A DNA stretch of 64,000 nucleotides from Polyangiaceae bacterium (lineage in GTDB: Bacteria; Desulfobacterota; Binatia; UTPRO1). Shown piece by piece: positions 7,081-17,965 of the stretch; within the stretch, counting starts at the first letter, position 1; every line of letters begins with the position of its first letter. The notes below the pieces were generated by a model. The model was not told the DNA's origin and searched no databases. It worked only from the letters and a program-made list of their open reading frames with translations. The stretch lies in assembly GCA_031400185.1 (NCBI GenBank), contig JANNPN010000182.1, forward strand, positions 5,895 to 69,894. The letters run 5' to 3'. The position numbers were made by a program, and so were the translations under genes.

Positions 7081-8106
7081 ATGTCGCTACCAACGATCGG
7101 CATCACCATGGGGGACGCCGCCGGCATCAGCCCCGAGATCCTCGTCAAGTCCCTCGCCGACCCGAAGATCCGCGAGTACTGCGAGCCCGTCGTCCTCGGA
7201 GACGTGCGCGTGCTCGCGGCCGCCGCCAAGGAGGCGAAGCTCGACCTCGCGTTCCGTGCCGTCGAACGGCCCTCGGCGTGGCGGGGGGACGGCACGTCGG
7301 TCGCCGTCGTCGACTACGGCGACGTCGACCCCGCGACGGTCACGATCGGCGTGGTCGATCCCGCGCTCGGCGCGGCCGCCGTGCGGTACACCCGCGAGGC
7401 GGCACGCTATGCGCTCTCGGGCGAGATCGATGGCATCGTGTCGGCGCCGCTCAACAAGGAGTCGATGCGCGCCGCCGGCTTCCACTACGAGGGCGCAACC
7501 GAGATCTTCGCAGAGGAAGCGGGCGTCAAGCGCTACGCGATGGTGCTGCTGCTCGGCGAGATGCGCCTGCTCTTGCTCACCAACCACATGTCGCTGCGCG
7601 AGGCATGTGACAAAGTGACGAAGGCCCGCGTCCACGAGAAGATCCTGCTGGCGCACGAGGCGCTGATCGCGCAAGGCATCGCCGCTCCGCGGATCGCGTG
7701 CTCGGCCCTCAATCCGCACGCGGGGGAGGGTGGGCTCTTCGGACGCGAGGAGATCGAGGAGATCGAGCCTGCGATCGCCGCGGCGAAGGCCGCAGGCGTG
7801 AACGCGATCGGCCCCGTCCCAGCGGATACGGTCTTCTACAAGACCAAGCAGGGCATGTACGATCTCACGATCGCGCTCTACCACGACCAGGGTCTCGGAG
7901 CGGTCAAGCTCCTCGGGTTCGGCGACGTGGTGACGCTGCTCATCGGGCTGCCGTTCATCCGCACCTCGACCGGGCACGGCACCGCCTTCGACATCGCCGG
8001 CAAGGGCATCGCCAACCACAAGAACCTGCTCGAGGCCATCCGGACCGCGGCCGAGCTCGGCGCGCAGCGGCGTGCCGGCGCCGGACCGGCCGCGAAGAGC
8101 GCCTGA
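7081..8106 (+). CDS. PdxA-family NAD-dependent dehydrogenase (4-hydroxythreonine-4-phosphate dehydrogenase-like; PdxA2-type)
   Basis: MSLPTIGITMGDAAGISPEIL...HDQGLGAVKLLGFGDVVTLLIGLPFIRTSTGHGTAFDIAGKG is a PdxA signature. A DUF1537 kinase lies two genes downstream, which suggests a PdxA2/OtnK-type pairing. Confidence 0.8.
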   Translation: MSLPTIGITMGDAAGISPEILVKSLADPKIREYCEPVVLGDVRVLAAAAKEAKLDLAFRAVERPSAWRGDGTSVAVVDYGDVDPATVTIGVVDPALGAAAVRYTREAARYALSGEIDGIVSAPLNKESMRAAGFHYEGATEIFAEEAGVKRYAMVLLLGEMRLLLLTNHMSLREACDKVTKARVHEKILLAHEALIAQGIAAPRIACSALNPHAGEGGLFGREEIEEIEPAIAAAKAAGVNAIGPVPADTVFYKTKQGMYDLTIALYHDQGLGAVKLLGFGDVVTLLIGLPFIRTSTGHGTAFDIAGKGIANHKNLLEAIRTAAELGAQRRAGAGPAAKSA

Positions 8107-8135
8107 AGCGCGGCCGCGAGAAAGGACCCCCGAAC

Positions 8136-8786
8136 GTGTCATCCCCCGGAGAGACCGAGCCGCAGCGCGTGTGGGACATCTCGGTGCCGAACCGGCCGGA
8201 CATGCACTTCTATCCGGGCGACCCGATGCTGGAGCAAACGCAGATCCGCGCCATCAAGCGCGGTGACGCGGCGAATCTCACGCATCTTTCCCTCGGCGCC
8301 CACACCGGCACGCACGTCGACGCTCCGGCGCACTTCATCGACGGCGCCCCGACGCTCGAGCGGATCGGGCTCGACCGCATGGTGGGCCCGGCGCGGGTGC
8401 TCGACCTTCGCGGGCTCGCCGCGATCGACGCGAATGCGCTCCGCGGCCACGAGATCCAGCGTGGCGACATCGTCCTCTTCCTCACCGACAACTCGGAGCG
8501 CTGGGCGAAGCCGGGCTTCCAGCAGGACTTCACCTACGTGACGCGCGACGCGGCCGAGTACCTCGTGGAGCGCGGGGTGAAGACGATCGGCATGGACTAT
8601 CTTTCGATCGAACAGTTCGGGAGCAAGACGTTCGAGGTCCACAAGCTCCTGCTCGGCGCGGGAATCCTCATCGTCGAGGGGCTCGACCTCCGTGGGATCG
8701 CCGCGGGTCCGTACATGTTCACATGCCTGCCGCTGAAGCTCGAGGGCGTCGACGGGGCGCCGGCCCGTGCGGTGCTGATGCGGTGA
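8136..8786 (+). CDS. cyclase-family protein (kynurenine formamidase-like metal-dependent hydrolase)
   Basis: GTG start 10 nt after AAAGGA. The motif HxGTHxDAPxH (LGAHTGTHVDAPAHF) is typical of the PF04199 putative cyclase family. 216 aa. Confidence 0.75.
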   Translation: MSSPGETEPQRVWDISVPNRPDMHFYPGDPMLEQTQIRAIKRGDAANLTHLSLGAHTGTHVDAPAHFIDGAPTLERIGLDRMVGPARVLDLRGLAAIDANALRGHEIQRGDIVLFLTDNSERWAKPGFQQDFTYVTRDAAEYLVERGVKTIGMDYLSIEQFGSKTFEVHKLLLGAGILIVEGLDLRGIAAGPYMFTCLPLKLEGVDGAPARAVLMR

Positions 8787-10006
8787 CCGCGTTCGCCGCG
8801 ATCGCCGACGACCTGACCGGCGCCTGCGACGTCGCCGCCGAGCTCGCGACGGCCGGACGGTGCGTGCGCGTCGAGGTCGTCCCGGGCGCGTACGGCGGTG
8901 CGGAGGACGGCGGTCTCGTCGTGGTGAACACCCAGAGCCGCGCGCTCGCCCCTGCAGCGGCCGCGGAGCGCGTGCGTCAGGCGCTTCGCGGGCACGCGGC
9001 GCCGCTCGTGCTGAAGAAGATCGACACCGCGCTCCGTGGTCACGTCGGCGCCGAGCTCGATGCCGCGCTCGACATGCTCGGGGCTCCCGGGTTCGTGCTC
9101 GCAGCGATTCCCGCCGCCGGGCGAGTGACGCGTAACGGCTGTCAGTGGTTCGGGGGGCGACTCCTCGCAGACACCGAGTTCGCGCGCGATCCCGAGGGAC
9201 CCGGTGCCGTCTCGTCGATCCCGGTGGTCGTCGGTCGCGAGAGTCGCCGGCGGAGCGCGGTCGTCGCGCGCGAGATCGTCGCCGCCGGCACGCTCGCGGC
9301 GGAGGTGGCGCGTCAGCGTGCCGCCGGCATCGACCTGTTCGTGATGGACGCCGAAAGCGACGAGGACGTGGCGCGCGCGGTCGGAGCGATCCTGGCGCTC
9401 GGATGCGCGGTCTGTCTGGTCGGGTCGATCGCGCTCGCGGCGGCGCTCGCGCCGCACGTCGGGGCCGCGGCCGGCACGACGGCGCGCGCGCCCGAGCTCC
9501 CGCAGCCGGCGCTCATCGTGAACGGCAGCCTCCACAGCCGCGCGCGGGCGCAGGTGGAGGCAGTGCTGGCGACTGGAGAGGCCGTCACGCTGCGGCCGAC
9601 GGCGCCGCATGTCGCGCGCGACGCCGTCGACGCGTTTCGGCATGGGACGACGGTCGTGCTGGAGCCGGCTCCGGCGGTGTCCGTGCCGACCCACGCGGCG
9701 CTCCGCACGACCGAGACCGCGCTCGCCGACGCCGTCGCCGCGATCCTCGCGGCATCGCCGCCGGCCACGCTGATCTTGATCGGCGGCGAGACCAGTTACG
9801 CGATCCTCCGACGGCTCGGCACCGGCGCGATCGCGGTACACGGGCGGATCGCGCCGCTCGTGGCTTACGGGACGATCCTCGACGGCGCCGCCGCGGGGAC
9901 GGTGCTGGTCACCAAGGGCGGCTCGGGCGGCGAGCCCGACGTCCTCGCGGCGATCGTGCGCGGTAACAATTCCCCAACGGTGCGGAGCGCGGAGGACAAG
10001 GCATGA
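8783..10006 (+). CDS. four-carbon acid sugar kinase family protein (DUF1537/DUF4392, OtnK-like)
   Basis: GTG at 8783 overlaps the upstream stop (GTGA). The N-terminal IADDLTGACD motif, ~407-aa length and two-domain layout match the Otn kinase family. Confidence 0.8.
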   Translation: MTAFAAIADDLTGACDVAAELATAGRCVRVEVVPGAYGGAEDGGLVVVNTQSRALAPAAAAERVRQALRGHAAPLVLKKIDTALRGHVGAELDAALDMLGAPGFVLAAIPAAGRVTRNGCQWFGGRLLADTEFARDPEGPGAVSSIPVVVGRESRRRSAVVAREIVAAGTLAAEVARQRAAGIDLFVMDAESDEDVARAVGAILALGCAVCLVGSIALAAALAPHVGAAAGTTARAPELPQPALIVNGSLHSRARAQVEAVLATGEAVTLRPTAPHVARDAVDAFRHGTTVVLEPAPAVSVPTHAALRTTETALADAVAAILAASPPATLILIGGETSYAILRRLGTGAIAVHGRIAPLVAYGTILDGAAAGTVLVTKGGSGGEPDVLAAIVRGNNSPTVRSAEDKA

Positions 10007-10485
10007 GTGGCGGAACGGAGCTCAAGGTCGCCGACGACACGGTCGTCACGATCGAGTACCGCGCGAGCCTCACGGACGGAAAGCTCGTCGACTCGACGGA
10101 TGACTGCGGGCCGGTCACGTATCTGCACGGGAACGAGCAGATCTTTCCCGCGCTCGAGCAGGCGGTCGACGGCGCGGTCGCGGGTGAGGAGCGGCACCTG
10201 TCGCTCGCGCCGAGCCAGAGCTACGGCGAGCACCGGCCCGACCTGGTGCGGCGCATGCCGCGCGCGCAGATCCCGCCCGAGATCGCGCTCGAGGTCGGAA
10301 AGCGCTACACGATCCGGCCGCCGCGGGGCGAGCCGATGATCTTCCGGTTGGTCGGGGTGGAAGGTGACGAGGTCGTTGCGGATTTCAACAATCCCGCGGC
10401 CGGGCAGGGGCTCGAGATCTGGGCCAAGGTGATCGCGGTCCGGCCGGCCACGGCCGACGAAATCCGGCGGGGGACGCTACGATGA
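10003..10485 (+). CDS. slyD: FKBP-type peptidyl-prolyl cis-trans isomerase, SlyD-like
   Basis: The pattern [18 protein letters not shown]...[16 protein letters not shown]...DFNNPAAGQ is characteristic of SlyD/FkpB. ATGA overlap with the upstream gene. Confidence 0.8.
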
Positions 10486-11255
10486 AGCTGTCGATCGTGA
10501 TGCCGGTCTACAACGAGTCGGCGAGCATCCGGGAAATCGTGCAGCGCGTGCAGGCGTTGCCACACGCGAAAGAGCTCATCATCGTCGACGACGGATCCCT
10601 CGACGGGACGCGCGACGTCCTACGCGAGCTCGCGGGGGGCGAGATCCGCGTCTTCTTCCACGCCAACAATCGCGGCAAGGGTGCGGCGCTCCGGACCGGG
10701 TTCGCGCACGCGCGCGGCGACGTCGTGGTGGTCCAGGACGCGGACCTCGAGTACAACCCGCGCGACATCCCGCCGCTGTTGCTGCCGATCGAGCGCGGCG
10801 AAGCGGACGTCGTGTTCGGTTCGCGCTTCCTCGGGGGACCGCACCGGGTGCTGAACTTCTGGCACTACGTCGGGAACCGCGTGCTGACCCTGCTCTCGAA
10901 CATGTGCACGAACCTGAACCTCACCGACATGGAGACCGGCTACAAGCTCTTCCGGCGCGAGGTCGTGCAACAGATCGAGATCGAATGCGACCGCTTCGGG
11001 TTCGAGCCGGAGATCACCGCGAAGGTGGCCCAGTTGCGCTGCAGAATCTTCGAGCACCCCATCTCCTACGCGGGGCGCGACTACGACCAGGGGAAGAAGA
11101 TCACCTGGCGTGACGGCGTCGCCGCCCTGTACCACATCGTCCGTTTCAGCGTGCGCGGTCGTCGCGTGCGGTCGGCTCCGCCGGTCGCCGTCGAGGAGAT
11201 CGCGGCGCGGCCCGCTCAAGTCGCCGACGTTCGCCGTCTCGACGTCGAGCGCTGA
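10482..11255 (+). CDS. glycosyltransferase family 2, polyprenol-phosphate sugar transferase (DPM1/Ppm1-like)
   Basis: [12 protein letters not shown]...[11 protein letters not shown]...[12 protein letters not shown] carries the GT2 DxD motifs of dolichol/polyprenol-phosphate mannosyl/glucosyl transferases. It overlaps the slyD stop. Confidence 0.8.
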
Positions 11256-11277
11256 CCCTCCACCAAAGGAAGCAGTC

Positions 11278-11532
11278 ATGAGGAAACGCGAAAAATTGAC
11301 GCCCGAGGAGCGCTTTGCGCTCGCCCTCGACCTCATCAAACGCGAGCATTCGTTCGCGGAGGTGTGCTCGCACTACCACGTGAGCCACACGACGGCGTAC
11401 AAGATCCGGAACGCCTTCCTCGAAGGCGGCCGGCGCGCGCTCGCAGGCGCGCGGGCGCGTGAGCCGCTCGACGTGGTGCGCGACGAGGCTGCGACGGACG
11501 GCAACGGCATCGAAGAGAACGGGATCGGATGA
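11278..11532 (+). CDS. small helix-turn-helix protein, IS3-family OrfA-like (HTH_Tnp_1-like), stand-alone
   Basis: AAAGGA RBS 8 nt upstream of the [16 protein letters not shown]...[23 protein letters not shown] resembles the N-terminal HTH of IS3/IS911 OrfA. No transposase catalytic ORF follows. The stop overlaps the next gene's ATG. Confidence 0.5.
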
Positions 11533-13976
11533 GACGGTTTGCGCCCACTGCGGCCGCGGTCGGTGCGGTGCTCGGCGTGCTCGCTCTCTTGGGGCAACCG
11601 GCGCCGAGCGGCGACGCGTATCTCTGCTACAAAGGGACGCCCGTCCACGCAGACTTCCTGCCGGCGTTCGTTCCGCGTCCCGGCCTCGTCGTCCTCGATC
11701 GTTTCAGCAAACCGGTCCCGTCCGATCAGCACCGCCTCGACGTGGTGAAGCCGCTCGCGGTCTGCAACCCGGCCGACGCGGGACACCCGGCGAGTGAGAA
11801 CGTGCGCCTGGAAGCCTACCGGACACGGCTCACGCGCACCGTGCCGAAGCAACCGAAGCGCGCCCCGGGCGTCGTCGAGGTGACCGACCAGCTCGGCACG
11901 TTGAAGCTCGCGCTCGCGTCGGCCGGGCGCGTGCTCCGTCCCGCGTCGACGTTCGACGGGCCGAACGGCGCGCCCGCGCTGCCGCCGACGAGCGTCCACG
12001 ACTTCACCTGCTACGACGCCAAGGTCGCGCGCGCACCCCGCGGGCAGCCGGCGTTTCCGCGCTTCGCGCCGACGTCGCTCGCGGTGAGCGACGATTTCGC
12101 GGCCCGCACCCTGACGCTCTCGAAGCCGACCCGCTTCTGCACCGCGGCCGACGTCGCGGGGCACATGCCGAGCGCGCCGTCGCACCGCGGCGCCCTCGTG
12201 TGTTATCGCGCGCACCTGACGAAGCTTCCGGGCTTTACCCAGCCGCGGTTCGTGAAGCGCGTCCTCTCGTCCAGCAGTCGTTTCGGACCGGAGGTCGTGA
12301 CGCTGCGGGCGATCGAGGAGGTGTGTCTTCCGGCCCGGCTCGCGGGCGACCCGGTGCCGACGCCGACGGAGACCGTGCGGCTGCCGACGCGCACACCGAC
12401 GCCGAGCCGCACGGCGACGCCGTCGCGCACGCGCACGCCGACCCCGAGCCGCACACCCACGGTCACGCCGACGCGGACAGTCTCGATCACCCCGACGCCC
12501 ACGGTGTCGCCGACGCCGACGGTCACCGTGAGCCCGACCCGGACGGTCACGGTGACGCCGACCGCCACGGTGACCGGCACGCCGACGGTCACGGCGACGC
12601 CGACGGTCACGATCTCGCCGACCCCCACCCTGAGCCCGACGCCGACGCTCACGCCGACCTCGACGGCCGCGACGCCCATTCGGACCTCGACGCCGACCGC
12701 GACGGCCACGGCGACCGTCACGCCGACGCCGACCTTCACCGCGAGCGGTACGCCGACCGTGACGTCGACGGCAGCGACGCCCACGAGCACGCCAACCGCC
12801 ACGCGCACCTTCCCGCCGACGGCGACCGTGCCGGCGACCGCGACGGTCACGCTCTCGGCGACGCCCACCGTGACGAGCACGCCGACCGTCACCGTGACCG
12901 CCACGCCGACCGTCACCGCGACGCCGACGCGGACGGTGACGCCGCCGCCGACGCTCACCGCGACGCCGACCGTGACGCGGACCGCAACGCCGACGGTCAC
13001 CGTCACGGGGACGCCGACCCGCACGGCCACCCCCACGATCAGCCGGACGCCGACGCCCACCAAGTCGGCGACGCCGACGGTTACGAAGACTCCGACGCCG
13101 ACGCTGACCGTCACGCCGACGTCCACCAGGACGGCAACGCCGACGGTGACCAAGACGGCGACGCCGACGAGGACGACGACCCCCACGCCGACGCGGACCG
13201 CGACCCCGACGGTGACCAAGACACCGACGCCGACGAAGACCACGACGCCGACCCCCACGCGGACGGCAACGCCGACCGCCACCAGGACGGCGACGCCGAC
13301 GAAGAGCGCGACGCCGACGGTGACCAAGTCGCCGACGCCGACGCTCTCGGCGACGTCGACGCCGACCTTCACCCCGAGCCCGTCGCCGACCGTGTCGCCG
13401 GTCGGCGATCCGATCGCGCTCGACGTGGATCCCGACAACAAGACGATCACGCAGGGCACGACGGCGAACGGGCAGTGCACGGCGATCTACGCGAACGGTG
13501 CGACCCGGAACTACACGCAGCGGGTCGAGTGGTCGTCGAGCGATCCTGCGATCGCCTCGGTCACCAACACCGAAGGCCAGCGCGGCAAGGTGACCGGGAA
13601 CGGTCCCGGAACGATCGTGCTGCGCGCGCGCGATCCGATCACCGGCATCGACTCGAACGACTCGGGGCAGAACGGCTCCATCACCGTGCTCGGCCTGCTC
13701 GAAACCATCGAGCTCACGCCGGTGAGCACGACCGACACCGTTGGCGACGAGCGTTTCTTCACCGCGAAGGGGCACTTCGACGGCGGCACCGAGAGTAACA
13801 TCACCCAGGACGTCGATTACTCGTCGTCCGACCCCAACGTCGCGGTCGCGCCCAACGAGGCCGGGAGGAAGAGTCGTGTGGTCGCGGTCGGGCCTGGCGT
13901 TGCCACCATCCGCGCGACCGATCCAACGACCGGTGTCGTCAGCAACGATGCCACGTACACCGTCGAGGCGCCGTGA
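11529..13976 (+). CDS. secreted multidomain surface protein: signal peptide, 2x novel Cys-containing ~115-aa module, ~350-aa Pro/Thr-rich linker, C-terminal Big_2 (Ig-like) domains
   Basis: N-terminal signal peptide. Two tandem copies of a module starting CYKG / CYDAK with conserved Cys positions. A P/T/S/A/V-only region spans aa ~275-625. The C-terminus has Big_2-like repeats (NYTQ..W.SS.P..A.V...G). It is a paralog of the next gene. Confidence 0.8.
12351..13404 (+). repeat. in-frame tandem degenerate repeats (ACGCCGAC-rich) encoding a Pro/Thr-rich linker
   Basis: About 1 kb of short imperfect repeats translating to (T/S/A/V)PT(P/A/V) units. The antisense and alternative frames give long spurious Arg/Gly-rich or Asp-rich ORFs. 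Confidence 0.8.
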
Positions 13977-14072
13977 GTTGCCTACGGAGCGTCATGTGTC
14001 CATGGTGACGGAGCGCGCCACGTGCCGTGACGTCCGCCGCCGTTCGAAAACACACTCGGAGCACACTCAACG

Positions 14073-16691
14073 ATGACCAAGCTTTGGATCAGCCTCCTCG
14101 TGACCTGTGCGGTCACGCTCGGATCCGTGCCTGCGCTCGCGCAGCCGGTCGGGGACTCCTTCGTCTGCTACAAGAGCCGGCAGCTCGGCCCGCGCGGCGG
14201 TCTGCCGGCGTTCACGCCCCGCCCCGGCGAGGTCGTGATCGACACCTTCAGCACGGCCCGCCCCGAGGATCAGCACAAGGTGGATCTGAAGAAGTCGATC
14301 GGGCTGTGTGCGCCCGCTGGCCTCGAGGGCGATCTCCTCCTCGATCCCGCGATCCACCTCGAAGCGTACGGCATGGCCGTGACCAAGACGTCGCCGCGGC
14401 AGCCGAAGCACGGCGACAGCCTGCACGAGATCGTGAACCGCTTCGGCACGCTGAAGCTCCGGGTCCGCAACGAAAACCGTTTGCTCGCGCCGACTGCGAA
14501 GGCGCTCGGGACGGGCGGCGTTGGCGGGATCGGCGCCACGGTCTTCGACAACTTCAAGTGCTACGACGCCAAGGTCGCGCGCGCCGCGACCGGGGCGCCA
14601 CCGTTTCCCGTCTTCACGCCGACGCAGGTGTCGGTGACCGACCAGTTCGGGACGCGGGTCTACAAGGTGACGAAGCCGAGGCGTTTCTGCGCGCCCGCCG
14701 ACGTCGCGGGCGCCAACCCGTCGTCGCCGACGCACGTCCGCTCCCTCGTCTGCTACCAGGTGCGGGTCGCGTCGACGAAGCCGAAGCAACCGAAGTTCGT
14801 CGCGACGCAGGTCTCCACGCACCCGTCCTTCGGTCCCGAGGCGCTCGTGCTGAACAAGGCGGACGAGCTCTGCCTGCCGTCGTTCAAGGATCCCGGCCAG
14901 CCGACGCCGGTGCCAACGGCGACGCCGGGCGGCGGCCAGCCGGGCTCGGTGCTCGCGATCCGCATCAGCCCGCTGACGCGCTACGTGAGCCCGGGCGGCA
15001 GCTCGACGTTCACCGCGACCGCCGACCTCGTCGGCGGCGGCACGGAGAACTACACGCAGAAGGTCATCTGGACGTCGAACAATGCCGGGGTCGCGCTCGC
15101 AGCGAACGCCACCAACGACCGCAGCCGGATCCAGGCCGTGAGCCCGGGAATCGCCACCATCTCGGCGACCGACCCGGTGAGCGGAGTGACCTCGACGGCG
15201 TCCGGAGACGCCACCTTCAATGTCCCTGGCGCGTTGCTCAGCATCGCGCTCACGCCGGCTGCGCCCGCGCTCGACATCGGTGAAGCGCGGAGCCTGGTCG
15301 CGACCGGCACGTTCGAAGGCAACGTCACGCGCAACATCACGCAGCTGCTGACGTACGCTTCCAGCAATTCCGGAGTCGTCGCCGCGCCGAACGCCGACGG
15401 CAACAAGAGCCGCGTCGAGGGCGTCGCACCCGGCACCGCGACGATTTCCGCGGTCGACACCGTGACGGGCGTCAGCAGCGGCGATTCAGGGGGCAATGCG
15501 ACGGTGAGCGTGCTCGGCGCGCTCGAGAGCATCACGCTGAGCCCGGTCACCAAGACGAAGGCCGCCGGCCAATTCGTGAACTACCTCGCGACGGGGCACT
15601 ACGCGGGCGGCGGCATGCAGAACATCACGCAAGAGGTCGACTACGCGTCGAGCAATCCGAGCGTCGCGACCGCGTCGAATCCGGTCGGCAACAAGGGGCG
15701 CGTCGACACCGTCGCGCCCGGCACCGCCACGATCTCGGCCTCGCACCCGAGCGGCATCACGACGACCGCCGGCGGCAACGACGCCACGCTCACCGTGTCC
15801 GCGGCGGTGACGAACCTTTTGCGCATATCCCTCGCACCGACGTCCGCGACACGCAGCGTGGGCGAGCTCCAGAGGTTCACCGTGACCGGCCACTACGAGG
15901 GCGACGGCGTTGCCAACCTGACCCAGCAGGCCGTGTACAGCTCGTCGAACCCCAGCATGGCCGCAGCACCCAACACCCAGGGCGACAAGAGCCGGGTCGA
16001 CATGGTGGCCCCAGGGGTCGCGACGATTTCGGCGACCTACATCGACCCGAATACCCAGCTCGAGGTGAGCACGACCGATTCCGGGGACGATGCGACGATC
16101 ACCGTGATCGGGGCGCTCGAGCGGATCACGCTCTCGCCGGTGCAGGCGACGCGTGCGTCGGGACAGTCGATCACCTACACGGCGATCGGGCACTTCGGCG
16201 GCGGTTCCACGAAGAACCTCACGCAGCGGGTCGACTACGCGAGCAGCAACCCGGCCGTCGCGACCGCGCCGAACGCGACCGGCAACAAGAGCAAGGTCGA
16301 CACCGTCGCGCCCGGACAGGTCACGATCTCCGCGACCGACACGCTGACGGGCCTCAGTACCACGACGACCGGCGACGACGTGGCGCTGACGGTGATCGGC
16401 GCGCTCGAGCGCATTACCTTGAGCCCCGCGAACGCGACGCGCGCGCCGGGAGGCCTCCAGCGCTACACGGCGACGGGCCACTTCGGCGGTACCGTGACGC
16501 AGAATCTGACGCAGGATGTGCTCTACTCGTCGAGCGACCCCGCAGTCGCGAGCGCGCCGAACGATGAGGGCGATCGGAGCCGCGTCGATGCGCTCGCGCC
16601 GGGAACCGGAACGATCACAGCTACGCACCCGACCGCGAACATCAGCACGACCGACACCGGCGACGACGCGCAGCTGATCGTCGAGCCCTGA
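14073..16691 (+). CDS. secreted protein: signal peptide, 2x novel Cys-containing module, ~8 Big_2 (bacterial Ig-like group 2) repeats
   Basis: The signal peptide ends ALAQP. The N-terminal modules match those of the upstream gene (FVCYKSRQLG..., [12 protein letters not shown]...). Eight ~88-aa repeats carry the consensus N(I/Y)TQ...Y.SSN..VA.A.N..G.KS.V..VAPGTATISA. Confidence 0.85.
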   Translation: MTKLWISLLVTCAVTLGSVPALAQPVGDSFVCYKSRQLGPRGGLPAFTPRPGEVVIDTFSTARPEDQHKVDLKKSIGLCAPAGLEGDLLLDPAIHLEAYGMAVTKTSPRQPKHGDSLHEIVNRFGTLKLRVRNENRLLAPTAKALGTGGVGGIGATVFDNFKCYDAKVARAATGAPPFPVFTPTQVSVTDQFGTRVYKVTKPRRFCAPADVAGANPSSPTHVRSLVCYQVRVASTKPKQPKFVATQVSTHPSFGPEALVLNKADELCLPSFKDPGQPTPVPTATPGGGQPGSVLAIRISPLTRYVSPGGSSTFTATADLVGGGTENYTQKVIWTSNNAGVALAANATNDRSRIQAVSPGIATISATDPVSGVTSTASGDATFNVPGALLSIALTPAAPALDIGEARSLVATGTFEGNVTRNITQLLTYASSNSGVVAAPNADGNKSRVEGVAPGTATISAVDTVTGVSSGDSGGNATVSVLGALESITLSPVTKTKAAGQFVNYLATGHYAGGGMQNITQEVDYASSNPSVATASNPVGNKGRVDTVAPGTATISASHPSGITTTAGGNDATLTVSAAVTNLLRISLAPTSATRSVGELQRFTVTGHYEGDGVANLTQQAVYSSSNPSMAAAPNTQGDKSRVDMVAPGVATISATYIDPNTQLEVSTTDSGDDATITVIGALERITLSPVQATRASGQSITYTAIGHFGGGSTKNLTQRVDYASSNPAVATAPNATGNKSKVDTVAPGQVTISATDTLTGLSTTTTGDDVALTVIGALERITLSPANATRAPGGLQRYTATGHFGGTVTQNLTQDVLYSSSDPAVASAPNDEGDRSRVDALAPGTGTITATHPTANISTTDTGDDAQLIVEP

Positions 16692-16705
16692 TTCGGGTCG
16701 GCAAC

Positions 16706-16795
16706 GGGGGAGATTGCGCGCATCAGCGCGCAGGGAATTGCGCGCGTCAGCGGGCGGGGATTGCGCGCTCAGCGCGCAGGGGATTGCGGCGGCAG
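16706..16795. repeat. three to four tandem ~23-nt palindromic units (ATTGCGCGC-N-TCAGCGCGCAGGG), each able to form a GCGCGC hairpin
   Basis: Direct repeats are visible between the convergent Big_2 gene (+) and the histidine kinase (-). The last units overlap the 3' end of the kinase CDS. This is a likely bidirectional terminator or REP-like element. Confidence 0.5.
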
Positions 16796-17965
16796 ATCGA
16801 CGGTGAAGCGCGTGCCGCTCCCGACGGTACTCGCGACGCTCACCTCGCCGCCGAGCGTTTCGCAGAAGCGCTTCACGATGTAGAGCCCGAGCCCCGACCC
16901 GGTGCGACCGCGGCTGCCCGTGCGGAACGGAGCGAAGACGTGCGGCAAGTCTTCGGCCGCGATTCCCGTCCCGGTGTCCGAGACCTGCAGGCGGATGCGA
17001 CGGTCGTGCGGGGTTGCCGTCACCGTGACCTCGCCGCTCTCAGTGTGGCGGAGCGCGTTGTCGATCAGATTTTGCAACACCTGCCGGACCCGGAAACGAT
17101 CGCTCCGAAACGGGGGTGTTGCGGGATCGGCGTGCCAGGTGAGCGCGACGTGCTGACCGGCGCGATGGGCGAGCGAGCCCGTACAGAGCTCGTGCATGAC
17201 CTCGCCGGCCGTGAACGGCTCGACGATCTGTTGGTCGGCCTGACGCTCGATCCGCACCAGATCGAGCGCGCCTGCGAGCACGTCGTAGAGCTCGCGCGCA
17301 TGGCGCTCGATCGTCGTCAGCACTTCGCGCTGTTCGCCGGTGCAGGGGCCGTAGGTGTCGTCGATCAGGAGCTGCGTGTAGCCGAGCATCACGTTGAGCG
17401 GCTGCCGCAGGTCGTGCGAGAGCGAGGCGAGGATCTCGGCGGGCCCGGACTGGCTCGCCGCGTCGACGTGCCGTTTGTGCGCGTGCCGCAGCGCCACCGC
17501 CGCGAGCGACGCAGCGTACCGGGCGAGCCCGACGTGCTCGAGCCCGAACGCCGCACCGATCCATGGGCGGAGCTGCATCGCGAGGGGCGCGGCGTCGGCG
17601 TCGATCGGGAGCGTCAGCATCGCCGAATCGTGCATGGCGTCGCCGAGCGTCGGACGGTGCTCCGCGAGGGCGCGGCGCACGAGGGCGTCGTCACCGGCCG
17701 CGAACGGGATGCCGTAGGCGCCGCGCGTGACGAGCGTGTCGTCGCTCCGCATCTCGACGAGCCGCGCACCCGAGGCACCGAGCACGAGCGCGGTGCTTTG
17801 GCAGAGGCGGTCGGCGAGCGACGCGTCGTCGGGCGGCGCCACCAGCAGACGCTCCTGCACCTGCAGGAGCTGCTCCAGGCGGGTCGGATCGACGGGGAAG
17901 ATCGGCTCGGTGCTCACGGCGTCGACGTTGCGGACGACGGCACGCCTTCCGCTAGGTGTCGGCAC
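16769..17965 (-). CDS. sensor histidine kinase (N-terminal GAF-like sensor, HisKA, HATPase_c)
   Basis: The H-box is LSHDLRQPLNVMLGY. The N, G1 and G2 boxes are QVLQNLIDNALRHT, DTGTGI and GSGLGLYIV. No response regulator is adjacent. Confidence 0.8.
   Translation of the reverse strand: MPTPSGRRAVVRNVDAVSTEPIFPVDPTRLEQLLQVQERLLVAPPDDASLADRLCQSTALVLGASGARLVEMRSDDTLVTRGAYGIPFAAGDDALVRRALAEHRPTLGDAMHDSAMLTLPIDADAAPLAMQLRPWIGAAFGLEHVGLARYAASLAAVALRHAHKRHVDAASQSGPAEILASLSHDLRQPLNVMLGYTQLLIDDTYGPCTGEQREVLTTIERHARELYDVLAGALDLVRIERQADQQIVEPFTAGEVMHELCTGSLAHRAGQHVALTWHADPATPPFRSDRFRVRQVLQNLIDNALRHTESGEVTVTATPHDRRIRLQVSDTGTGIAAEDLPHVFAPFRTGSRGRTGSGLGLYIVKRFCETLGGEVSVASTVGSGTRFTVDLPPQSPAR

Follow-up and report, generated by a model that had tools for sequence, protein, structure and literature searches.

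The closest described relatives of the proteins considered here are the members of the Pfam family DUF7450 (PF24247), which is catalogued as a 'Repeat of unknown function'. Two better known groups of extracellular proteins invite comparison as well, namely the carbohydrate-binding modules (CBMs) with other lectin-like modules, and the intimin/invasin-type Big adhesins, in which an outer-membrane barrel and a C-type-lectin-like tip occupy opposite ends. In the present study, we followed up two neighbouring secreted-protein genes, A and B, in a 64,000-nucleotide stretch of contig JANNPN010000182.1 (the whole stretch is called the window below) from an uncultured, Binatia-like bacterium. They are two adjoining open reading frames at positions 11529-13976 and 14073-16691, both on the plus strand, as the initial annotation of the window had placed them, and their products are exported paralogues in which a signal peptide is followed by a pair of cysteine-containing modules (the head); no further copy of the module was found in the window besides those of A and B. 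We are very confident about the identity of these heads, which by sequence comparison are divergent members of DUF7450 rather than a new family, and about the architecture of the two proteins. For the complete explanation, in which divergent DUF7450 heads built of disulfide-clamped units would act as binding modules, we see an even chance.

The direct scores against PF24247 are low, i.e., 18.7-22.8 bits for B and 16 bits for A, both under the Pfam gathering threshold of 27 bits. Relatives bearing the same head rise above it (P0030, 55 bits; P0024, 49; P0025, 28.8; P0036, 27.4), and P0030 also shares the head-plus-Big_2 architecture of A and B. A profile of the window clade (A, B, P0001, P0026 and P0048) aligned by hhalign to a profile of canonical DUF7450 pairs (24 pairs from repeat-rich proteins, several of them scoring 157-289 bits on PF24247) with 99.94% probability and an E-value of 3e-37 over 211 columns. 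DUF7450 was matched by 72 of the 80 top relatives of the module profile, and an exhaustive hidden Markov model (HMM) search with a 12-module profile brought up 4,892 representatives at E <= 1e-3, with 3,042 at E <= 1e-10 and 565 at E <= 1e-30. Almost all of the 283 matches of a third search were pre-annotated as PF24247.2, the source names being limited to 'hypothetical protein' and 'cysteine-rich repeat protein'. Few relatives emerged from a word-index search, the best of them a Candidatus Binatia protein with 76% identity, and a single match was labelled PF24247; fragments made up most of its output because several metagenomic A/B orthologues are split or end in Arg/Pro-rich out-of-frame tails (P0002, P0005, P0007, P0021 and P0022, the first two on one 197,639-bp ENA contig), which are probably frameshifts or assembly errors in a gene of 70% GC.

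With the family, A and B share the motifs DHF-x-CY, V-x-L-x-DQFG and L-C-x-P-x-x-K, the succession HL-x-CY ... NQFG ... LCVPS-x-K, the cysteine pairs and the obligate pairing of ~110-120-aa modules, and they differ from it in that the loops between strands 1 and 2 are longer and module 1 has an extra 'ARPEDQH' insertion. The PF24247 model itself spans three units and consequently runs out of register with the module as first delimited. The initial annotation had considered this module unassignable to any known domain, a view that the hhalign match and the 72 of 80 relatives overturn. Taken literally, it would mean a domain without relatives in any family database; Pfam and NCBIfam indeed gave no above-threshold match to the A/B head, the NCBIfam scan of both proteins returning nothing relevant, but against the profile alignment, the thousands of representatives and the ready-made PF24247.2 labels this is scarcely credible. 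The same annotation was right in separating the head from Big_2, PKD, cadherin and fibronectin type III domains, for which the Pfam models give no match to the head, and a confident match to a characterised family, which it had named as the result that would overturn its view, was not found.

A and B share 41.5% identity over their N-terminal ~280 residues (E = 3e-64). That modules 1 and 2 are homologous, i.e., internally duplicated, is established by a BLAST match off the diagonal, in which A residues 2-155 align with B residues 136-283 (32.7% identity, E = 6e-6), and all four modules can be aligned with 17 invariant columns. Comparison of family profiles by hhalign separated two levels of repetition: a module duplication (units h1-h3, E = 8e-33; h2-h4, E = 4e-30), which is far beyond chance, and a unit duplication (h1-h2, h1-h4, h2-h3 and h3-h4, E = 1e-16 to 4e-19). 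Since each module consists of two homologous units, the head, which takes up the first ~250 residues of either mature protein, is an ABAB array of four homologous units of ~55-60 aa, i.e., two modules of ~120 aa. The two copies per protein, four in total, that had been described at the outset are thereby borne out, and the ~115-aa module is a real duplicated entity (~115-120 aa), but it is not the smallest repeat, as it splits into the two units. Likewise, a shared motif skeleton exists, which at the level of the unit reads (D-H-F)-x-C-Y, then V-x-[LV]-x-D-Q-F-G, then L-C-x-P-x-x-K; of the motifs listed initially, however, PRPG is limited to module 1, and ExCLP and VCY to module 2. Their counterparts in module 1 are (V/L)L(R/A)P and LEAY, so that both cysteines of that unit are missing.

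The complete set of head cysteines comprises residues 33, 79, 161, 204, 225 and 266 in A and 32, 79, 163, 206, 227 and 267 in B; mature B has no cysteine outside these six positions, its Big_2 array being cysteine-free. A check on conserved disulfide pairing had been proposed for the module, and we counted cysteine covariation over 152 module pairs of the family. Both cysteines, neither, or only one were present in 135, 16 and 1 pairs for unit h1, in 55, 96 and 1 for h2, in 152, 0 and 0 for h3, and in 151, 1 and 0 for h4. As the cysteines of the 'CY' and 'LCxP' motifs are thus kept or lost jointly, with almost perfect covariation, we strongly infer that each unit is clamped by one disulfide, from the 'CY'-strand cysteine to the 'LCxP'-strand cysteine ~40-47 residues further on. 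A and B keep three of the four cysteine pairs and would hold three disulfides per head (C33-C79, C161-C204 and C225-C266 in A; C32-C79, C163-C206 and C227-C267 in B), h2 having lost both cysteines, as it has in 96 of the 152 family pairs. In the AlphaFold2 (AF2) model all six B head cysteines lie within predicted strands, and the presence of such disulfides would imply folding outside the cytoplasm.

Export is also what the N-termini indicate. Both proteins start with a Sec-type signal peptide, as had been noted initially, and B possesses a classic ...PALA/QP cleavage site (the slash marks the cut). The putative cleavage site of A was taken from the translation; the N-terminus of A is the same as that of the orthologue P0048.

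The AF2 model of B residues 24-279, computed from a 50-sequence alignment, is all-beta with 12 DSSP strand elements, at a mean predicted local distance difference test score (pLDDT) of 95.9 and a predicted template modelling score (pTM) of 0.92; module 2 of B alone reached 92.9 and 0.81, respectively. In the model, the two modules appear to form one rigid all-beta body, which would fit their obligate pairing, and a unit resembles a blade-like meander of four strands. A Foldseek search of the pair model against the PDB gave no match at E <= 0.001 (the best had E = 0.12 and a template modelling (TM) score of 0.13), and searching PDB sequences with a profile of the 50-sequence alignment of pairs turned up only a chance match to MDM2 (E = 0.96), so that the fold has no recognisable solved counterpart. 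Single blades of Kelch, WD40 and galactose-oxidase beta-propellers are among the closest known structures, but neither the pair nor a single module matches a whole propeller; the head has four units, not six to eight, with a predicted internal disulfide in each. As no closed ring of four or more blades superposing on known propellers emerged, a beta-propeller was rejected. Eight-stranded up-and-down barrels (avidin/streptavidin, dirigent and allene-oxide-cyclase (AOC)-like barrels, Gid4, and the linker barrel of giant haemoglobin) were compared as well; a barrel of the calycin, avidin or AOC kind was discounted, there being no significant whole-barrel superposition, and with Foldseek finding nothing we regard a small-molecule-binding or catalytic beta-barrel (avidin, calycin, AOC or dirigent-type) as very improbable.

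The comparison with the inverse autotransporters of the intimin/invasin type deserves a closer look. These adhesins have in common with A and B a Big_2 stalk, a distinct terminal domain and Sec secretion, and an N-terminal beta domain of ~250 aa followed by a Big-type array superficially resembles their outer-membrane translocator, the more so as the pair model has 12 strands and as OmpT, Pla and OpdK occur among the non-significant Foldseek matches. Nevertheless, these matches stand at E >= 0.12 with TM ~0.1, no Pfam model of an autotransporter or inverse-autotransporter barrel matches, the strands are charged on both faces (e.g., KVDLKK) instead of following an amphipathic pattern, and three conserved disulfides are predicted. 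Moreover, arrays of 4-6 modules and soluble stand-alone versions of ~240 aa exist, and C-terminal copies end without an aromatic residue. We consequently rejected the outer-membrane barrel, whose probability we hold to be next to nil. A and B have neither the barrel nor the lectin-like tip of those adhesins; their only non-Ig domain is the soluble N-terminal DUF7450 pair.

How the pair is used across the family gives a better idea of what it may do. DUF7450 comprises ~4,900 clusters at 50% identity, nearly all from uncultured environmental bacteria, the named sources being Candidatus Binatia, 'delta proteobacterium', Thermodesulfobacteriota, Nitrospinota, Acidobacteria bacterium Mor1 and Actinomycetota. 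Among 173 sequences (171 fetched proteins plus A and B), the number of modules was even in 154, with two modules in 136, four in 14 and six in 4, and the odd counts (19/173) may be fragments. In the 149 top representatives, the pair was C-terminal in 76, made up the whole protein in 28, and lay at the N-terminus in 25; of the 20 internal cases, nine were within 20 residues of the C-terminus. Hence the pair is terminal or stand-alone in 129 of the 149. As it is N-terminal in only 25 and C-terminal or alone in 104, it is more apt to call the pair a general terminal module than a dedicated head. The fusion partners include Big_2, Big_9, FG-GAP, DUF5122 and Kelch-like propellers, cadherin-like, PKD, DUF11 and Lcl_C domains, and further DUF4215, RTX, TSP3, disintegrin, PPC, Calx-beta, a cellulose-binding-protein domain, Laminin_G_3 and cohesin, all of which, by their domain assignments, are extracellular adhesion or scaffold domains.

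On this basis, we propose that the DUF7450 pair would be a non-catalytic recognition or attachment module of the periplasm or the extracellular space, whose target might be a polymer, a surface or a partner protein, as with a lectin, a CBM or an adhesin tip, while the Big_2 arrays and, in A, the Thr/Pro linker would serve as spacers. What speaks for such a role is that the pair is terminal, stands alone or in tandem, is Thr/Pro-linked and is fused only to surface-protein scaffolds; additionally, no conserved gene neighbourhood pointing to an enzymatic pathway was seen in the loci compared. There is a likeness to CBMs and lectin-like modules, as the pair, too, is small, beta-rich, disulfide-stabilised by prediction and apparently non-catalytic, and sits at either terminus, in tandem or alone, with Thr/Pro linkers (in A and P0025) to varied partners. 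It matches no CBM family in sequence or fold, however, and the resemblance would be one of usage, not of ancestry. The ligand-binding or adhesin head on an Ig-like stalk that the initial annotation had imagined may still be considered plausible. Taken by itself, we put the binding-module role at or slightly under an even chance.

Several observations weigh against this proposal. The heads of A and B fall short of the Pfam threshold, and a literature search on 'DUF7450' and 'PF24247' found no paper, ligand, partner and localisation being unreported. The disulfides are predictions from covariation and modelled strands. Neither A nor B has a recognisable anchor, so that the tip of the stalk is indistinguishable from its base, and where relatives carry 4-6 modules in tandem (P0032, P0038), the arrays resemble structural repeats as much as binding sites. 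Finally, A and B do not retain the loop that is putatively functional in the family. This most conserved loop of DUF7450, C-x-P-[VA]-D-K-N-G-E-[GD]-[IP], follows the cysteine of the odd-numbered units and is a frequent feature rather than a formal criterion of membership (of 245 loops, 185 contain the K, 126 the N and 137 the E); we take it to resemble, putatively, the calcium-binding loops of the DxDxDG type. At the corresponding sites (A residues 79-90 and 204-215, B residues 79-90 and 206-217), non-acidic sequences have replaced it: A reads ADAGHPA and ADVAGHM, and B reads AGLEGDL and ADVAGAN, departing from the D-K-N-G-E consensus. If the loop is a functional site, the specificity of the window clade probably differs from that of typical DUF7450 members.

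Two other readings have to be set beside the binding module. In one, the pair would be an envelope anchor that binds an outer-membrane or peptidoglycan component of the producing cell, leaving the Big_2 array to project as the working part. Within the family, the pair hardly ever lies away from a terminus, which is also where anchoring domains of the SLH type sit, and A and B offer no other candidate anchor; the 28 of 149 secreted pairs that stand alone, on the other hand, would be anchors without cargo. For B the anchoring could alternatively be achieved by lipidation of a conserved cysteine in the signal peptide. Cys12 of B sits in the hydrophobic core, and a cysteine 11-17 residues from the start recurs in all seven B-type N-termini read as intact (LVTC in B, i.e., LVT-C12; FVTC, LIVC, LAAC, AVAC, LLVC and LVVC in the orthologues). 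Measured against the lipobox consensus for signal-peptide ends, [LVI][ASTVI][GAS]C, most of these sequences deviate at position -1, where only two of the seven contexts fit; the sequence could be a non-canonical lipobox. The segment ahead of the cysteine is moreover short (11 residues in B), the hydrophobic stretch continues behind the cysteine, a signal-peptidase-I site, AxA/QP, is conserved ~10-14 residues further on, and A and its orthologue P0048 have no such cysteine. We accordingly think both the anchor and its lipidated variant unlikely, while still conceding them some weight.

In the other reading, which we hold to be somewhat less probable again, the modules would be passive structural repeats, that is, rigid spacers or oligomerisation units comparable to Ig-like domains, with no ligand of their own. 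The occurrence of arrays of four and six modules, the 'Repeat' class given to DUF7450 in Pfam, and a model that shows a compact all-beta body without obvious cofactor motif are all in its favour. Strict pairing and a terminal position, however, would be unusual for simple spacers, proteins with one pair only do exist, and the conserved polar loops (D-K-N-G-E, DQFG/NQFG) point to a functional site in most members.

Should the binding-module proposal hold, it would furnish an annotation for thousands of 'hypothetical' surface proteins in soil metagenomes. We entertain only tentatively, and with more doubt than belief, the wider idea that the pair represents a fold without a solved representative, composed of four disulfide-clamped blade-like beta-meanders held in one rigid body, and a new class of extracellular binding module (lectin-like, adhesin-like or for envelope attachment) in uncultured phyla of soil and sediment, namely Binatia, Acidobacteriota, Nitrospinota and metagenome-assembled genomes (MAGs) of 'Deltaproteobacteria'. 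The companion idea, that the window clade is a sub-family of that class with a different ligand, seems to us speculative to a similar degree. What A and B do provide already is an extension of DUF7450 below the detection threshold of Pfam and a clearer repeat anatomy (four units, obligate module pairs, and one predicted disulfide per unit with correlated loss), and residues 24-279 of B are a construct that models with very high confidence and is suited to structural and binding work. For this locus alone the gain is modest, a correct observation having been filed under an existing family of unknown function.

Table 1. Features of genes A and B and of the gene preceding them, with positions numbered along the window
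Feature	Position	Strand	Description
Small helix-turn-helix (HTH) protein	11278..11532	+	84 aa (HTH_23/HTH_28); Pfam match
Gene A	11529..13976	+	815 aa: signal peptide, DUF7450 pair, Thr/Pro linker, two Big_2
A signal peptide	11529..11606	+	~aa 1-26: MRR, hydrophobic core, LLGQPAPS; read from translation
A module 1	11607..11963	+	aa 27-145; HMM envelope 26-144, 109 bits
A module 2	11988..12353	+	aa 154-275; HMM envelope 154-275, 141 bits
A Thr/Pro-rich linker	12354..13424	+	aa 276-632
A C-terminal region, two Big_2	13425..13973	+	aa 633-815; Pfam Big_2
A units			h1 Cys33 + Cys79; h2 none (LEAY ... VLRPAS); h3 Cys161 + Cys204; h4 Cys225 + Cys266
Gene B	14073..16691	+	872 aa: signal peptide, DUF7450 pair, six Big_2
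B signal peptide	14073..14141	+	aa 1-23, MTKLWISLLVTCAVTLGSVPALA/QP; from translation and orthologue N-termini
B module 1	14145..14510	+	aa 25-146; HMM envelope 25-146, 126 bits
B module 2	14538..14900	+	aa 156-276; HMM envelope 156-275, 162 bits
B array, six Big_2	14940..16688	+	aa ~290-872; Pfam Big_2
B units			h1 Cys32 + Cys79; h2 none (LEAY ... LLAPTAK); h3 Cys163 + Cys206; h4 Cys227 + Cys267

Behind the heads, the two proteins differ in their stalks (Table 1). Pfam Big_2 (PF02368) matches two stretches in A (26 bits, threshold 22.8) and six in B (116 bits), so that the C-terminal Big_2 arrays described initially are present in both proteins, only with fewer repeats than the ~3 and ~8 estimated then. 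A ends in ...YTVEAP and B in ...LIVEP. Between head and Big_2 domains, A has in addition a linker of 357 aa that had escaped mention, with 42% Thr and 20% Pro, whose DNA consists of degenerate tandem repeats of 12-66 nt and accounts for a strongly negative GC skew, together with a positive AT skew, in the window at 12-14 kb. Judging from a family 2 glycosyltransferase (GT2) gene two genes upstream, the linker could be a substrate for mucin-like O-glycosylation.

The stop codon of the HTH gene overlaps the start codon of gene A (ATGA), and the two are probably co-transcribed and translationally coupled. This HTH gene is also found upstream of the A/B orthologues in loci L002 and L003; an unrelated small HTH_31 gene lies directly before the stand-alone DUF7450 gene P0009 (L016, 773-1072), which may be a coincidence. 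Further upstream (8723-11255), the window encodes a four-carbon-acid-sugar-kinase-like protein (SBD_N, NBD_C), an FKBP-type peptidyl-prolyl isomerase and the GT2 glycosyltransferase, in frames that overlap or abut, and this block is kept in close relatives. A scan of 11000-17000 for promoters and terminators gave sites no more frequent than in shuffled sequence.

A locus search with an alignment of closer relatives identified 11 related genome loci. In close relatives, the order is sugar-kinase-like gene, FKBP, GT2, HTH, A where present, B, a histidine kinase on the opposite strand and an ATP-binding cassette (ABC) ATPase. Both A and B are present in L002, and L004, whose sequence starts inside A, retains the C-terminal part of A, B, the histidine kinase and the ABC ATPase, while L003 and L005 keep B and the flanking genes with A missing. 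From this pattern, A appears to be a tandem paralogue of B whose presence varies with lineage, through either a recent duplication or a recent loss. Because the flanking genes are ~80% identical throughout L002-L005, synteny among these close relatives carries no functional weight, and distant DUF7450 members have unrelated gene neighbours. A co-occurrence with the upstream glycosylation genes, raised initially as something to check, turned out to be no more than this local synteny. We accordingly rejected a functional link to the upstream GT2, FKBP and sugar-kinase genes, which are absent around distant members, and equally one to the downstream histidine kinase and ABC ATPase, likewise syntenic in close relatives only.

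Other genomes contain at least two DUF7450-head genes, sometimes a few kb apart, e.g., at 8001-8747 and 11726-12484 of L006, and L003 and L010 are from the same MAG, MFD00822.bin.1.245, with more than one such gene, which suggests recurrent local duplication of DUF7450-head genes. The gene calls for A and B themselves recur on a public metagenome contig of 7.7 kb (Logan SRR20217204).

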